Sequence record: PP763259.1
Source: Acinetobacter phage Ab15
DNA length: 64,000 nt
Strand: one strand, 5' to 3'
Part shown: piece by piece, positions 16,501 to 22,905 of the stretch
Layout: each line of letters starts with the position of its first letter
Numbering within the stretch: position 1 is the stretch's first letter
The notes under the pieces: generated by a model
The model's input: only the letters and a program-made list of their open reading frames with translations
The model's database searches: none
What the model was told of the DNA's origin: nothing
Position numbers and translations under genes: made by a program

Positions 16501-19272
16501 TTATTGACAGTTATCACATTCTTCATGTCGCTTAATATCACCAGATCCCCTCATAGAGTAGATGTAGTATAAAGCTAAGATACCTGCATTTTCCAAAGCA
16601 TATTTGTGAACCTTCATAATATACTCTGGAGTGTCATTACTTGTAAAATACAAGTTGATTGACTGTTGCTGATCAATATATTGTTGTCGTTGTGCACACA
16701 AATCCAAATGTTTGATCATGTCAATCTCAAAGGCAGTTCTAAAGACATCCTTCTCATGCTGAGTCAACCAGTGAACATGTTGTACAGAACCTTTATGCTT
16801 ATTGATGTCATTGATTACGTCTTCATTGTAAACACCACGTTCCTTCATGATCTCTAGAAGGACCTTATTAACCCTCCAGATATCTCCTCCAGCACTCTGC
16901 TTAACGAACACCATAGCAACATCTAAACCAATACCTTCAGAAGCACCAGCCATAATCTCTGCTGTTGACTTTGTAGGTGGCATCATCATCGTTGTTGCAT
17001 TACGGATTCCTAAATGAGCGCACCCTTCAGGCATACCAACTTCACGAGCCAACCACTTAGAAGCAGCTAAGGTTTGATCTCTCATACCCTTAAAGATTTC
17101 TTCATTTAACCAGAAGCTCTCAAGGCTACCTACCACAATTCTACGTTTTTGTAGTAGTGTGTGGAAACCTAATACACCTGTACCAACTGCACGGAATCTC
17201 TTGGTGAAGGCTAAGATTTTTCTAAATGCCAAGGCATCCTCTTTACCTTGCTTAGTTCGGTTTTCCATAAACTCGATGTAGTCACTCACATTACAATCTT
17301 GCATTACATGTGCAATAAATGCTAAGTGAGGACATCTCGATTTCCACTCATCGTATAAGTCAAGGTTCAAGTTCAGAATTACACAAGAGAATGTATGCTT
17401 CTCATCACTACCAAGTAACACTTCTTGGCAATTCATAGTATTCAAACCATTGAACATCAACATGTTACGTTTTGGCTCAAGTGCACAATATGTATCATCA
17501 AATCTTCCTTGGTCGATCACTTCATCAACACATACAAATCTTTCAGCAGAACGTTGAGGTTTTCTTTCACTCCATTTTAGGCGGTGTGTTTTTAAACCTA
17601 ACTGACTCAACTTAAAGAGACCTGTACTCGATACAAGAAGACGATAAGCATCTTGGCATTCAAACAGTCCTTTATCACCCGTACCATTATTGAGAGGTAA
17701 TTCTTTTAGACCACCTACATCCCTCAAGACAACCTTTGAAGAAACACCAAGTGTTTGTAACATCAATTGCACATCTTGTAAGAATGTCTTGTGAATGCTT
17801 ACCACTTGGATAGATTCATTTTCACCATTACGAGCAATAGTTCCATCTGAATCTAGGAGTCCAGCAAACCATTCCAATCGGCTTTCAACAGTGTACTCAG
17901 ATGTTGGTACAAAGAATTTATCCTTAAGTCCTTCACTGTGAGTAAGCTTAATACGATCACCACCTTGAAGTCCTGACACTGAAGAAACGCAAGTTATATT
18001 TTCAAGTAACTCCTTCTTCTTACCATACAAGTATGTGTGTTTTTTACCTTTGTATTCAAAACCATCACCAGTGAAGAATCCATTAGTGTAAGCATGTTCG
18101 AGGGTCTTGTCACCTAAAATAACTGGTAGATCAAATTTAGATAGTCGATCACCAGACTTCAACTCGTAGGCACGTTTAATGACCTCATTGCCATCCTCAC
18201 CAACAACCTTAAAGCGGTGATACTCTGTGCAATCTAATTCATACCCTGAATCAGTTACCACTTTAACTAACTTCTGATTTTCACCAGTTTTGATAATTGT
18301 CACTTCAGACCATTCAAAACCATTCCACACCTCGACCTGTTGTCCCTCAAGGTCAGAAATCGTTTGATATCCACTTTTAGTTAAGATTAATGTCTCAGGT
18401 GAAACACACAAATTAGAAGCTTTCGCTGTCATACCTGCATCTTTAAATGCCTGAGCTAAGTGGCGGTTCATTTCATCAATCTTAGTGAAGTAACCCTTAC
18501 CACGTTGCATCTTGATAGCAATAGCTTTAGCTAATAGGGCAACTGCTTCTGGGTCATCCTTGACTAACTTCTCAATGTACTCGTCCTTACATAACCATGC
18601 TGGGTTATTACTTTCAGGTCGTTTGAATAAGTACTTTAAAACTTCCTCAAACTCGGGATGTTCAATACTTACAGCATAAGATAAACTACCTCTACGGCTA
18701 CCTTGAACAACCTCATCCATACAGTTGATTAAGTCACGGATAAGAGGCATAACCCCACCACTGTAACCACCACGAGGTAGTTTCTTACCTTTATAGGCCC
18801 AATCATCAATTGAGTAAGATGTACCATGTGAGTGCTTAGTTAGGATAGCTGCTTCAGTCACACAATCATAACGAGAGAACAAGTCATCACCAACATAACC
18901 GCTAGCACAACTTACTGTTGATCCCCTTTCAGGTAAACCACTGTTCGCCAATAAAGGAGTTGAACAAGACACATAACCATCCCAAAGTACGTCAAAAAAC
19001 ACCTCCTCCCAAGTTTTACCAGCCGTATAAGTATCCACATTCCACCAAGAAGGGTACTTATCTGGTGCATGTTTAGCTAAAGTCTTAGCAATCATTTTAT
19101 AGCGAGCTTTTACAGTCTCACCATTCCACGAATACTTTTCAAAGAACAACTGAGTCCCACCAGTGGTAAACCATTTAGGGATCTCTCCATGTTCTTGTAG
19201 TTTTTTTCGAAGTTGACTGTAACTGTCAACCCCGTATAATTCCAATGTCTCTAAATAAGATAAAACAGCCAC
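16501..19272 (-). CDS. nrdA: ribonucleotide reductase class I alpha subunit, intein-containing
   Basis: Motif LANSGLPERG. The catalytic SNL-C...C-QEVLL site is split by an insertion. A C-terminal CDNC pair is present. 923 aa including a 326-aa insertion. Confidence 0.85.
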   Translation of the reverse strand: MAVLSYLETLELYGVDSYSQLRKKLQEHGEIPKWFTTGGTQLFFEKYSWNGETVKARYKMIAKTLAKHAPDKYPSWWNVDTYTAGKTWEEVFFDVLWDGYVSCSTPLLANSGLPERGSTVSCASGYVGDDLFSRYDCVTEAAILTKHSHGTSYSIDDWAYKGKKLPRGGYSGGVMPLIRDLINCMDEVVQGSRRGSLSYAVSIEHPEFEEVLKYLFKRPESNNPAWLCKDEYIEKLVKDDPEAVALLAKAIAIKMQRGKGYFTKIDEMNRHLAQAFKDAGMTAKASNLCVSPETLILTKSGYQTISDLEGQQVEVWNGFEWSEVTIIKTGENQKLVKVVTDSGYELDCTEYHRFKVVGEDGNEVIKRAYELKSGDRLSKFDLPVILGDKTLEHAYTNGFFTGDGFEYKGKKHTYLYGKKKELLENITCVSSVSGLQGGDRIKLTHSEGLKDKFFVPTSEYTVESRLEWFAGLLDSDGTIARNGENESIQVVSIHKTFLQDVQLMLQTLGVSSKVVLRDVGGLKELPLNNGTGDKGLFECQDAYRLLVSSTGLFKLSQLGLKTHRLKWSERKPQRSAERFVCVDEVIDQGRFDDTYCALEPKRNMLMFNGLNTMNCQEVLLGSDEKHTFSCVILNLNLDLYDEWKSRCPHLAFIAHVMQDCNVSDYIEFMENRTKQGKEDALAFRKILAFTKRFRAVGTGVLGFHTLLQKRRIVVGSLESFWLNEEIFKGMRDQTLAASKWLAREVGMPEGCAHLGIRNATTMMMPPTKSTAEIMAGASEGIGLDVAMVFVKQSAGGDIWRVNKVLLEIMKERGVYNEDVINDINKHKGSVQHVHWLTQHEKDVFRTAFEIDMIKHLDLCAQRQQYIDQQQSINLYFTSNDTPEYIMKVHKYALENAGILALYYIYSMRGSGDIKRHEECDNCQ
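17431..18408 (-). mobile_element. intein with LAGLIDADG homing endonuclease domain, at the catalytic Cys of nrdA
   Basis: Starts CVSPETLIL (block A), has TEYH (block B) and two LAGLIDADG-like blocks (YTNGFFTGDG and FAGLLDSDGT). It ends ...NTMN followed by Cys +1. Removing it restores SNLCQEV. Confidence 0.7.
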
Positions 19273-19282
19273 AAATACCTCC

Positions 19283-19789
19283 TTACTTACTTCCTTGTAA
19301 TCCTTTATTCTCTTCTGAATCTTCCATGATCAGCTTCAAGAGTTCTTCTTGTTCCTCTTGTTCTTTCTTCCTCATATTATTCCAAGCTTCTACAAACATA
19401 GCCTCAGACCAGTTACTTTCATACTCTCGGTTTTGACCCTTAGTGAAGAAATCTGGCATCTGGTAACCGTATGTATTTAAGTTAAACATCTTAGCCACTT
19501 TAGAATCCTTCTGAGTAACTTGAAACTCTTTAGGGATTTTATCTACAGGAACCTGCAAACGAGTCAAGAAAGTAAAGATTCGGAAGCGCACAAAATCAAT
19601 GTACTCGGCTGTTGTATACCCATTAAGTGAACCTGAAGGGATTGCCATATCAATGATTCGCTTCTCATGCTCTAACACGTAGTGGCAAGCTTGTAGTAAC
19701 TTTCCAAACATTTCTTCATGCTCATGTAGAGGTTTCCCTACTTCATGGAAATAGGTGTTAAAATGTTCTGCGGCGTAAATTCCATGCAA
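19283..19789 (-). CDS. nrdB: ribonucleotide reductase beta subunit, exon 2
   Basis: Begins LHGIYAAEHF..., which completes the DEDLH iron-ligand motif. Downstream EYIDFVRFRIF matches the R2 QYIEFVADRL region. Confidence 0.6.
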   Translation of the reverse strand: MHGIYAAEHFNTYFHEVGKPLHEHEEMFGKLLQACHYVLEHEKRIIDMAIPSGSLNGYTTAEYIDFVRFRIFTFLTRLQVPVDKIPKEFQVTQKDSKVAKMFNLNTYGYQMPDFFTKGQNREYESNWSEAMFVEAWNNMRKKEQEEQEELLKLIMEDSEENKGLQGSK

Positions 19790-20237
19790 CATGGGTTGTT
19801 CAGGTGTGCTCGTTACACACACCCCGTAGAGTACTTCACCACTCAAGTACTCACAGCTTACACTTTCATGTAAGATCAGACTATATCATCACCACAAGGT
19901 TTTACTTGTTGTGGTGCTTCCCACTTCGGTCTTACTTAAGACCTACTCCCCGAAGGGATAGTCGTTGAGGATTCTAAACCTAATTCCAACCACAAAGCTT
20001 TCCAACGTTTTTTATGCCTAATTAACGAAACATATCTAATGTATCCAGAAAATTTTGGATGTTTAAATTTTTCCATAATTACCTCCATAATAAGAGGTTG
20101 GAATTAGGTTTAGCTTTCCTGCTGATTGCCCAATACTTTAGATTTTTACTCAGTGTTTAAATTTTTCAACACTTCAGTACTAAAGTCTCTAAGGGGTTTC
20201 CAGCATTTCAAGAAGTTTATTGAGGACTTGCAAATTA
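19790..20237 (-). mobile_element. group I self-splicing intron (ORF-less) in nrdB
   Basis: P1 pairs exon GAGGAU with IGS GUCCUC and has U.G at the splice site. P10 pairs UGCAA with exon-2 UUGCA. P7 pairs GACUAU with AUAGUC. The intron ends in G. The spliced frame reads DEDLH. Confidence 0.65.
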
Positions 20238-21002
20238 ATCCTCATCTAGTGCACTCTGGTTAGCAATTTGGGCAATAACTTTAATTAAGTTAAAACCATT
20301 TGTCTGGAAGCTCTTAAGGATAGCAAAACTAGAGAACAACAAAGCTGTCTCTGTTAAAGAGAAGCACAAGCATGCAAGCATCTTGTTTTCATCTCGCATT
20401 AAACCATCTAACCATTCCATACGTTCATTGAGTACAGGGTCATCAATGTATGATGTGTAGTAATCATCAGTATCTAGTCCAAGTACAATGTTAATCTCAT
20501 TGTACGTTCGTGCATGGACCATCAACTCAATCATTGCTAAAGCAGAAGCACCAGCACGGGATTCATGTCGAGGGAATACTTTAATGAATAATCCATTCCA
20601 GAATTCATCACCAACAATTAATTCATACTGTAAGAATAAGTGTAGAACTGTTTTTACTGCATGTAGTTGCTCTTTAGTTAGCACATACTCAAGTTCCATC
20701 TGGTCATTCTTGACTTCCATTTCACTCTTAAACCACATCTGCTCTTCAAGCTGCTGGTCAGCAATCTCAAGAATCTTTGGGTACTTAATCTCATAGCCAC
20801 TATTGGGTGATGTAATACGGGTTTGCACTAATCCAGTTTTCTCTGAATTTAATGTTTTGTTTATTGTCACATAAACGAATTTCCCTTCAGGGTTTTTCTC
20901 ATCCTTGACATTGATGATAACCTTTCCAGCCGGTGGTGGTAAAAATCTAATCTTCTCAACCTGACCTTCGGTTAAATCCACCTCAATATTAATTTTAGAC
21001 AT
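20238..21002 (-). CDS. nrdB: ribonucleotide reductase beta subunit, exon 1
   Basis: The R2-like N-terminal 255 aa (FSLTETALLFSSFAIL) correspond to the E204 helix. The ORF-track stop TAA at 20235-20237 lies inside the intron. Confidence 0.65.
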
Positions 21003-22188: not shown

Positions 22189-22905
22189 ATGTTTAAAGGT
22201 TTTTTAACAGATGTAGCAAAAGAAGCTGGTGTTGGTCCTGCAATTCTTTTAAATCAGTTGCACCAATGGGTTAAGTCTACTGGAAACCAGAAGATTTACC
22301 GTTCTAATGCTCAATTATCTGAAGACCTTGATGGAGTTCTTTCAGTAGCAGCTATTCAACGTCATAAGGTAAAACTGATTGAATGTGGATACATTATCGT
22401 TTCTCACGATAAAGGAACTATTCGTACTACTACTTACCAATTAACTGAGAAAGCTTTGAAATCTTTAGGTGCTTTCTTTGACAAAGCTAAAGACAAAGTT
22501 AAACAAGCCTTCCAACCTAAAAAACCTAAACAACAAGTTCCAGCACAACCTAAAGAGGAACCAGTAAAGCAAAGCACTGAGAAACCAACCTCTATGGAAG
22601 AAGAGTTTAAGAAAGCTGGTCAAGAACGTAAGGACCTCCCTAGAGGTTGCCCTAAAGAACTTCTTAAAGGTATCTTTATGAGTGCTAAGAAAGAAGAGGA
22701 AAAACAAGAAGATGTTGTTTATGAGGACAATTCTGAAGAGTTATTTGGAAAGAAATTCGAAAGTGAAGACTTGAGTGATGAAGAAATCTTTGATAAAATG
22801 AGTAAAACTCTTGGTGGTTTATTTAAGACTATCCCTAATGTGGATAAAAGAAATTCAAACCTTCAATCTATGACTAACTTTGGTAACTTTCGAGAAGAGT
22901 ACTAA
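22189..22905 (+). CDS. hypothetical early protein with a central basic/acidic low-complexity region
   Basis: 238 aa. RBS AAGGAG. First gene of the forward early block. Confidence 0.5.
   Translation: MFKGFLTDVAKEAGVGPAILLNQLHQWVKSTGNQKIYRSNAQLSEDLDGVLSVAAIQRHKVKLIECGYIIVSHDKGTIRTTTYQLTEKALKSLGAFFDKAKDKVKQAFQPKKPKQQVPAQPKEEPVKQSTEKPTSMEEEFKKAGQERKDLPRGCPKELLKGIFMSAKKEEEKQEDVVYEDNSEELFGKKFESEDLSDEEIFDKMSKTLGGLFKTIPNVDKRNSNLQSMTNFGNFREEY

Follow-up and report, generated by a model that had tools for sequence, protein, structure and literature searches.

Evidence for a decayed group I intron within a metal-ligand motif of the ribonucleotide reductase R2 gene of an Acinetobacter baumannii myophage

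Introduction

In the Acinetobacter baumannii myophage Ab15, the gene for the R2 subunit of class I ribonucleotide reductase (RNR), nrdB, is interrupted by a 448-nucleotide (nt) insert, which we describe here from a 64,000-nt stretch of the phage sequence (record PP763259.1), called the window throughout and the frame for all coordinates given without another source. That the insert is a genuine group I intron with its boundaries at 19790 and 20237 is close to certain, and very probably it is a decayed one, lying within the second E-x-x-H metal-ligand motif of the encoded protein. Its group I identity, exact boundaries and covarying structure are directly observed, as are a deletion within it and a series of alleles at the same site. 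An earlier note, made from the sequence alone, had proposed a group I intron splitting nrdB in the ExxH iron-ligand motif, a proposal now borne out by an Rfam match, by intron-less alleles in close relatives and by covariation in 21 homologs.

Identity and boundaries of the intron

When all Rfam families were scanned against the whole window, the sole hit was the group I intron model RF00028, named as a check in the earlier note, which matches at 20271-19857 on the minus strand and covers model positions 1-253 in full (54.9 bits against a gathering score of 50, E = 3.3e-11). Two related introns, from the A. baumannii phage Herod and from KIL4, a phage of Pseudomonas syringae, reach 82.4 and 54.1 bits, respectively. 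The 3' boundary lies beyond the end of the Rfam match (19857) and is set by intron-less alleles: in the A. baumannii phages AM24 and Mithridates nrdB is uninterrupted, with 1272 nt that equal the sum of the two Ab15 exons (765 + 507), and the gap that these phages leave in the alignment corresponds to the base with 20237/19790. This coincidence is the strongest non-experimental support for the predicted splice junctions.

On the coding strand, exon 1 ends in GAUGAGGAU and the insert begins UAAUUUGCAAGUCCUC; the insert ends ...CCCAUG, after which exon 2 begins UUGCAUGGA, so the terminal G that the earlier note had placed just before exon 2 is confirmed and the boundary agrees with the intron-less alleles. 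With a slash marking the junction, the joined exon ends of the intron-bearing form read GAGGAT/TTGCATGGA, the AM24 counterpart being GAAGAC/CTTCATGGT. The arrangement at the 5' splice site, GAT/TAA, in which the intron opens with an in-frame stop, is found also in KIL4 and in a metagenomic contig, L284.

The joined product

The two minus-strand open reading frames (ORFs) given for R2 in the earlier note, 21002-20238 and 19789-19283, 448 nt apart, were verified to the coordinate, and joining them yields a 423-residue NrdB that reads ...SALDED/LHGIYAAEHF..., the same here as the uninterrupted NrdB of AM24 and Mithridates. The alignment of the spliced product to NrdB homologs that the note had envisaged gives one continuous R2 across the junction, and its claim of a restored iron-ligand motif fits equally well with Pfam, where Ribonuc_red_sm matches in a single stretch spanning the junction (residues 70-335, 4e-31), and with the solved R2 chains 8dq4 and 6cwo, to which the alignment is ungapped at this point (saldEDlHg vs tsidEQiHa). 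The E and H of this motif we take to be the second Glu-x-x-His metal-ligand pair of class I R2 (E238/H241 in E. coli R2), and the insert therefore sits in phase 0 (codons 255/256) between the two middle residues of the motif; by alignment to R2 structures, this break between its second and third positions falls mid-helix.

Compared with AM24, the nrdB of Ab15 carries 39 nucleotide but only 4 amino-acid differences, none of them near the junction (11 and 2, respectively, in exon 2). So few amino-acid changes among so many nucleotide changes indicate purifying selection on both exons, which in turn is an argument that the intron is still removed.

Three side observations concern the protein itself. 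The Ribonuc_red_sm match is preceded by an N-terminal extension of ~70 residues (residues 1-70; window 20793-21002, minus strand), for which Pfam gave no match. The closest solved structures, 8dq4, 6cwo and 6cwq, are presumably of the dimanganese class Id type, and GenBank records name NrdB class Ia. The first Glu...His ligand motif, at residues about 158-162 (IELMVH; window ~20516-20530, minus strand), has one residue extra when aligned to 8dq4 and 6cwo, E-L-M-V-H against E-F-R-H, i.e. ExxxH instead of ExxH, which may be a quirk of the alignment or else a genuine trait of this clade of phage R2 proteins.

Secondary structure and covariation

The secondary structure was drawn by hand and comprises P1, P3, P4, P5, P5a, P5b, P6, P6a, a small P6b hairpin, P7, P7.1, P7.2, P8, P9, P9.1, P9.2 and P10, every drawn helix being 100% complementary (Table 1). 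The pairings that the earlier note had read from the sequence stand as it gave them: P1 (GAGGAU/GUCCUC) is paired at six of six positions with a terminal U.G, P10 (UGCAA/UUGCA) at five of five and P7 (GACUAU/AUAGUC) at six of six; P7 is taken here as 5 base pairs (bp) because U280 is also needed for P7.1. Both guide pairings follow their exons. Homologs in another gene (L037, L029) pair an exon end GAGAAT with a guide GTTCTC to form P1, and P10 covaries with the exon in two other lineages, the guide having C opposite the +3 G of exon 2 in the window (UUGCAU) and U opposite the A of UUACAU in KIL4 and L284. The 18-bp inverted repeat of the earlier note (19974-19991 / 20096-20113) is likewise exact, and forms the P6a stem that closes the loop holding the endonuclease ORF; an equivalent long P6a stem with compensatory changes is found in KIL4 and L284.

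Between P7 and the 3' strand of P3 lie P7.1 (UCCC-UUCG-GGGA) and P7.2 (GGUCUU-AAGU-AAGACC), both of which covary and whose presence places the intron in subgroup IA. There is no P2, P1 and P3 being only 6 nt apart. A profile built from the window intron also matches the T4 td intron (E = 6.7e-11). Folded by free energy and left unconstrained, the sequence recovers P4-P6a, P7.1, P7.2, P8, P9, P9.1 and P9.2, with a z-score of -4.89 against dinucleotide shuffles, none of the 100 shuffles folding as well.

For covariation, homologous introns were gathered from IMG/VR by conserved-core patterns and an nhmmer filter, and 21 were aligned; covariation was counted over 60 base pairs of the core, P7 being entered as a pseudoknot, and compared with controls in which pairing partners were slid by 1-3 columns and with 500 shuffles. 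Standard pairs occupy 89.5% of cells, against 34-43% in the slid controls, the covariation score is 0.532 against at most 0.133, and changes on both sides are seen in 41 of the 60 pairs against a shuffled mean of 31.9; none of the 500 shuffles attains any of the observed measures. P4 and P7 are essentially invariant and 100% paired, and both-sided changes affect five of the six pairs of P3 and all seven of P5a, with P7.1, P7.2, P8 and P9 also rich in compensatory changes.

The core pattern TTGGGCAATCAGCAGG recovers more than 120 loci in viral contigs, which are not same-site relatives and were used for covariation only; the distribution of this core marks a very widespread phage intron lineage, and some contigs (IMG/VR L059, L010, L078, L094) carry two or three copies of the family within a few kilobases. 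A second pattern, GAGGATTAAN{5,8}AGTCCTC, returned 179 new loci from viral and metagenome contigs, of which the intron profile hit just six, a single one of them (L284) being an R2 intron at the same site; the remainder are chance matches, because the pattern specifies 16 bases and the collections are of such size.

Table 1. Features of the interrupted nrdB gene and of its intron, in window coordinates
Feature	Position	Strand	Description	Basis
nrdB exon 1	20238..21002	minus	255 codons, ending ...SALDED	ORF list; sequence; collinear with first 765 nt of AM24/Mithridates nrdB
nrdB exon 2	19283..19789	minus	168 codons + stop, starting LHGIYAAEHF	ORF list; sequence
Group I intron	19790..20237	minus	448 nt, subgroup IA-like (P7.1/P7.2 present, P2 absent), phase 0 between codons 255 and 256	Rfam; intron-less alleles; helices; covariation; fold
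In-frame UAA stop	20235..20237	minus	first three intron bases; ends exon-1 translation at the splice site	sequence; ORF list
P1	20222..20243	minus	exon-1 end GAGGAU (20243-20238) with guide GUCCUC (20227-20222); U.G at 5' splice site	
P10 guide UGCAA	20228..20232	minus	pairs with first five exon-2 bases UUGCA (19789-19785)	
P3 5' strand and P4-P5-P5a-P5b arm	20120..20215	minus	P3 5' strand 20215-20210; arm 20205-20120	covariation; free-energy fold
P6 and long P6a stem	19969..20119	minus	P6a arms 20113-20096 / 19991-19974, 18 bp; encloses endonuclease-ORF remnant	exact inverted repeat; folding
Small hairpin CCUC-UUAUUAUG-GAGG	20082..20097	minus	pairs the Shine-Dalgarno GGAGG of the endonuclease ORF	helix drawing; homolog alignment
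HNH endonuclease remnant	19936..20076	minus	46 codons; residues 1-12 joined in frame to 149-182 of the 182-residue R2096 protein	alignment with R2096
Deletion junction	20038..20040	minus	T at 20039 matches neither R2096 flank; net loss 408 nt	R2096 alignment (5' 198 nt + 3' 249 nt identical)
Catalytic core, 3' half	19857..19963	minus	P7 (19963-19959 with 19883-19879), P7.1, P7.2, P3 3' strand (19922-19917), P8, J8/7, P9 with GAAA loop	Rfam; helices; covariation
Peripheral hairpins and 3' tail	19790..19852	minus	P9.1 (19852-19829), P9.2 (19823-19803), tail to terminal G (19790)	helices; fold

A gutted endonuclease gene

The earlier note had called the intron ORF-less, which is right in that no intact endonuclease ORF is present and too strict in that a remnant of 46 codons survives at 20076-19936. 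Its further suggestion of a degraded or minimal mobile intron is settled in favour of degradation by the nrdB intron of phages YMC13/03/R2096 (KM672662/NC_027332; hereafter R2096) and P577 (OR180307), which stands at the same site of the same gene and, unlike that of the window, is 408 nt longer (856 nt) and encodes an intact endonuclease of 182 residues, with Pfam matches to HNH_3 (residues 50-91) and HTH_23 (127-157). That note had no mention of the remnant ORF and its Shine-Dalgarno hairpin, the role of the repeat in P6a, the overlap of ORF and core, or the synonymous exon differences from the intron-less alleles, all treated below or above.

The window intron consists of the first 198 nt of the R2096 intron, a single T, and its last 249 nt; it matches R2096 at each of the 447 shared positions and is 408 nt shorter overall. 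In the reading frame, residues 13-148 are gone, and with them all of the HNH motif and the larger part of the helix-turn-helix region. What remains begins behind a Shine-Dalgarno sequence, GGAGG, and has no Pfam match; an intact homing endonuclease is found in the R2096 and L284 copies and not in the window intron, which would be unable to home by itself because its entire HNH motif has been lost. The deleted segment lies between imperfect direct repeats, TGGATACA / TGGAATACACA; a simple microhomology-mediated deletion was considered and set aside, because these repeats do not match exactly and a single T at the junction belongs to neither side. The string that spans the deletion junction was absent from viral_contigs and genome_contigs.

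The last ~17 codons of the remnant (W-L-E-L-G-L-E-S-S-T-T-I-P-S-G-S-R-S) run through the 3' arm of P6a, P6, J6/7, P7 and P7.1, with the stop in the loop of P7.2, and this peptide tail is near-identical in R2096, in the L284 protein and in YosQ of the Bacillus phage SPbeta because it is constrained as RNA. Endonuclease ORFs that overlap intron core sequence are a described arrangement (PMC3984707).

At the other end of the ORF, the hairpin that pairs its Shine-Dalgarno sequence is the counterpart of the usual short P6a hairpin in members of the family that have no ORF, and the same pairing recurs in KIL4 (CUCC...GGAG) and L284 (CUCC...GGAG). By analogy with T4 I-TevI, the hairpin may limit translation of the endonuclease. 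A bolder idea, which we regard as improbable, is that translation of the mini-ORF unwinds the ribozyme core and could thus act as a switch that couples or delays the splicing of nrdB. Were it true, selection would be keeping the in-frame stub and its anti-Shine-Dalgarno hairpin after the loss of the endonuclease, and the overlap of ORF and core in R2096, L284 and SPbeta yosQ would be a regulatory design and not mere compaction.

An allelic series and signs of homing

Megablast against 50,697 phage records returned seven records, representing six A. baumannii phages (R2096 being present under two accessions), at 97-98.5% identity. Besides the uninterrupted genes of AM24 and Mithridates, Bestia matches over the same intron-less span of 1453 bp; R2096 and P577 have the 856-nt insert, in which an HNH endonuclease is annotated and which their records do not annotate as an intron; Ab15 has the 448-nt intron and Herod one of 322 nt.

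The Herod intron differs from that of the window in P6 only, being without both P6a arms and the ORF while keeping a CCUC-UUAUUA-GAGG hairpin, and its third P6 pair has changed from A-U to G-C, a compensatory substitution (L002 about 2470-2510, compared with window 19969-20119). Deriving it from the window allele by one deletion fails, as at least two deletions and two substitutions, all in P6, are needed, and a single deletion does not lead to it from the R2096 form either; stepwise trimming or conversion by an ORF-less relative are possible origins.

With the intron removed, the window and R2096 differ at 72 of 3172 nt (2.3%) across nrdB, its flanks and the start of nrdA, a rate that if uniform would give ~10 differences in the intron, where none is found in the 447 shared positions. 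The differences are patchy, and identity of the intron amid diverged flanks is therefore a suggestive rather than conclusive sign of homing. Among the intron-bearing phages, the exon differences closest to the junction lie at -22 or -34 and at +53. The background difference between the window and AM24 is 3%, and seven synonymous differences crowd within 22 nt of the junction (-4, -1, 0, +2, +8, +14 and +17), co-segregating perfectly with the presence of the intron among the five aligned phages (three with it and two without). Four of the seven are exon bases of P1 and P10: set against the guide, AM24 (GAAGAC/CTTCA) loses one P1 pair and two of the five P10 pairs, and its U.G becomes C-G. The presence and absence seen here at one site among close relatives, combined with altered flanking exon sequence, is the pattern expected of a mobile intron.

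A separate observation is a dense patch of substitutions in nrdA (window 18724-18903, minus strand, codons about 123-183), where the window has 22 differences from AM24 and from R2096 in about 180 nt and is identical to Herod; it looks like a recombination mosaic independent of the intron.

Proposed mechanism and history

In the mechanism that we propose, ribosomes translating exon 1 would halt at the UAA of the first intron triplet, while the guide pairs with the end of exon 1 (P1, with U.G at the cleavage site) and with the start of exon 2 (P10). The P3-P9 core would fold and bind guanosine in P7, and two transesterifications would free the intron, ending in G, and join the exons, restoring ...SALDEDLHG.... 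The intron presumably spread by homing, through an HNH endonuclease encoded in the loop closed by P6a with the 3' end of its ORF overlapping the ribozyme core, and the in-frame deletion of 408 nt would then have removed endonuclease residues 13-148 in this phage. The present intron would still splice and would not home alone, being mobilised at most in trans by a full-length copy during co-infection. Such mobilisation could occur as it does for the defunct T4 I-TevIII intron, which is mobilised in trans according to PMC2790892 and PMC3984707. Continued self-splicing is very likely, since the core is intact and identical to that of R2096, the exons are constrained and shorter variants persist.

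Alternatives and points of weakness

Several points weigh against this account of a decayed but still spliced group I intron. The RF00028 score is only about 5 bits over its threshold, a small margin, as score is lost to the large insert in P6 and to the additional P5 and P9 hairpins, and Rfam's own alignment misplaces P1 and P2 and ends 67 nt before the 3' splice site; its assignment of 5' helices, in which upstream exon bases form P1 with several non-standard pairs and P2 is put on the guide, was rejected in favour of the P1 and P10 of the earlier note, which are fully complementary and covary. The cluster of synonymous differences at the junction would fit co-conversion, selection for splicing through P1 and P10, or resistance of the target site in intron-less phages equally well. 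At the deletion, the T at 20039 fits neither R2096 flank (GGATACA/T/TAGATATG), so that either 409 nt were lost and 1 nt was filled in, or a substitution came after the deletion, and the 448-nt allele occurs in no other record among the phage records and viral and genome contigs searched, which means that the deletion rests on a single assembly. Finally, both splicing in vivo and the loss of mobility are read from sequence.

One alternative is that nrdB is a gene in pieces, its two ORFs translated separately into fragments that assemble into an active R2, as is reported for Aeh1 NrdA split by mobE, with the insert a non-splicing relic. Translation of exon 1 does end at a stop codon, that of exon 2 might begin at in-frame starts farther upstream (a 187-residue ORF from TTG), and phages are known to have RNR genes that are split and yet function (PMC3653736). 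The break, however, separates residues two and three of the E-x-x-H ligand motif in mid-helix, and inspection of the sequence finds no ribosome-binding site before the LHG codon; moreover, the ribozyme core is intact, identical to that of R2096 and conserved through compensatory changes, one of them being the A-U to G-C change in the P6 of Herod, and we consider separate translation highly improbable. Much the same evidence bears on the idea that the deletion killed splicing and left nrdB a pseudogene in this phage. It did alter the P6a loop, and some phage RNR genes appear to degenerate (PMC3653736), but none of it reaches beyond the loop that the intact 18-bp P6a stem closes, every core helix is as in R2096 (447/447 positions identical), and neither exon has lost its reading frame, the 39 nucleotide differences from AM24 amounting to just 4 at the amino-acid level; a shorter P6 also persists in Herod, and in the KIL phages a similarly gutted intron has had its exons joined by annotators. 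There is thus very little to be said for a dead intron.

The deletion itself might be an artefact of assembly or cloning, the phage really carrying the 856-nt intron with its endonuclease gene intact. The junction sequence is in none of the other records searched, and the imperfect repeats TGGATACA / TGGAATACACA could mislead an assembler or a polymerase; set against this, the deletion is clean, with flanks identical to R2096, and independent internal deletions of the same endonuclease gene in KIL1-5 and Herod make its decay a recurrent event, so an artefact has a very small chance of being the explanation, and one that would leave the group I identification unaffected either way. The favoured account remains that of a genuine intron that has lost its endonuclease and is very probably still spliced.

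Relatives and known systems

No phage genes are interrupted more often than those for RNR (PMC3653736), and several other systems resemble the one described here. The nrdB intron of the P. syringae phages vB_PsyM_KIL1-5 (Flaumdravirus) is homologous (~69% identity), has an identical boundary, SAIDED/LHG, and is annotated as a joined coding sequence; it shares with the window P1, a compensated P10, the long P6a stem, the Shine-Dalgarno hairpin and a decayed endonuclease ORF, and differs in its length (408 nt), in the periphery of P5b, P8 and P9.x and in the breakpoint of the endonuclease, of which 19 N-terminal codons are kept (...GNV, then a stop). As this stub extends past the window breakpoint, the endonuclease was lost independently in the KIL phages. 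In contig L284 the same boundary holds an intron of 827 nt, whose HNH ORF is intact and encodes 201 residues, 49% identical to the R2096 protein.

Homologs of the R2096 endonuclease are also found in split R2 genes of Vibrio phage K412, Pectobacterium phage CB7 and SPbeta (yosQ), where the insertions lie a few codons upstream of the window site, the positions in CB7 and K412 being approximate. In SPbeta (SPBc2) the intron of bnrdF likewise interrupts an R2 gene beside the same ligand motif, and the neighbouring large-subunit gene, bnrdE, carries an intein, as nrdA does in the window, the pairing of a YosQ-encoding R2 intron with a large-subunit intein having been reported (PMC3653736). YosQ is 39-41% identical to the R2096 endonuclease, with a shared C-terminus (...RYVSLIRHKRRWKxLW...STTI) read through the ribozyme core. 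Unlike the window intron, that of SPbeta lies 4-5 codons upstream (II/RDEAIH), is 808 nt long, has its endonuclease intact and belongs to a class Ib NrdF in a temperate Bacillus siphophage.

Another close precedent is the T4 nrdB intron with its defective I-TevIII, also group IA, also in the R2 gene of a lytic myophage and also with the catalytic part of an HNH gene deleted; the T4 record describes I-TevIII as a 'defective DNA endonuclease encoded by group 1A intron in nrdB, deletion in proximal half'. RB3 has a longer, mobile nrdB intron, and T2 and T6 have none (PMC1865063). The two systems nevertheless differ in several ways: the T4 site is near the EAIRFYVSFA helix, roughly 25-30 codons upstream of that of the window; I-TevIII has zinc fingers and not a helix-turn-helix region; the T4 deletion takes the N-terminal part (PMC1865063), whereas the window keeps the start and the C-terminus and loses the interior; and the window-intron profile, which matches T4 td, does not match T4 nrdB. 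A literature search of limited coverage found no paper on the nrdB intron of Acinetobacter or KIL phages, and the Acinetobacter phage intron is new in detail and of a kind already known from T4/RB3 and SPbeta; these precedents being decades old, it will not surprise specialists.

Significance

For annotation, the nrdB halves that have been deposited in this phage group as separate genes or hypothetical proteins should be joined as one R2 of 423 residues; in the R2096 record the second half is mislabelled 'alpha chain'. More broadly, the near-identical A. baumannii phages form a natural series at one site, consisting of an empty site, an active-looking HNH gene, a gutted endonuclease and a trimmed P6, and it covers the stages expected of the life cycle of a homing intron. 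As these are crossable phages and candidates for therapy, homing, mobilisation in trans, the length of co-conversion tracts and target-site resistance are open to direct test.

Neighbouring mobile elements

The nrdA gene of the window (16501-19272, minus strand) contains, at 17431-18408, a 326-residue intein (NrdA residues 289-614, CVSPETL...NTMN), which has a LAGLIDADG domain and interrupts the active-site motif ASNL/CQEV; Mithridates has an intein-less nrdA with exactly the predicted junction, and in AM24, R2096 and Herod nrdA is of intein length. In the window, as in R2096 and AM24, the position just upstream of nrdB has no free-standing HNH gene, a gene on the opposite strand taking its place (window 22189-22905). 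Herod has a free-standing gene there, about 1 kb upstream of nrdB and annotated as 'HNH homing endonuclease/putative DNA-binding protein' (L002 48-656), and in KIL4 (L006 1-1342) a second nucleotide-metabolism gene is interrupted, the thymidylate synthase immediately upstream of nrdB being annotated in two pieces around an HNH endonuclease gene.

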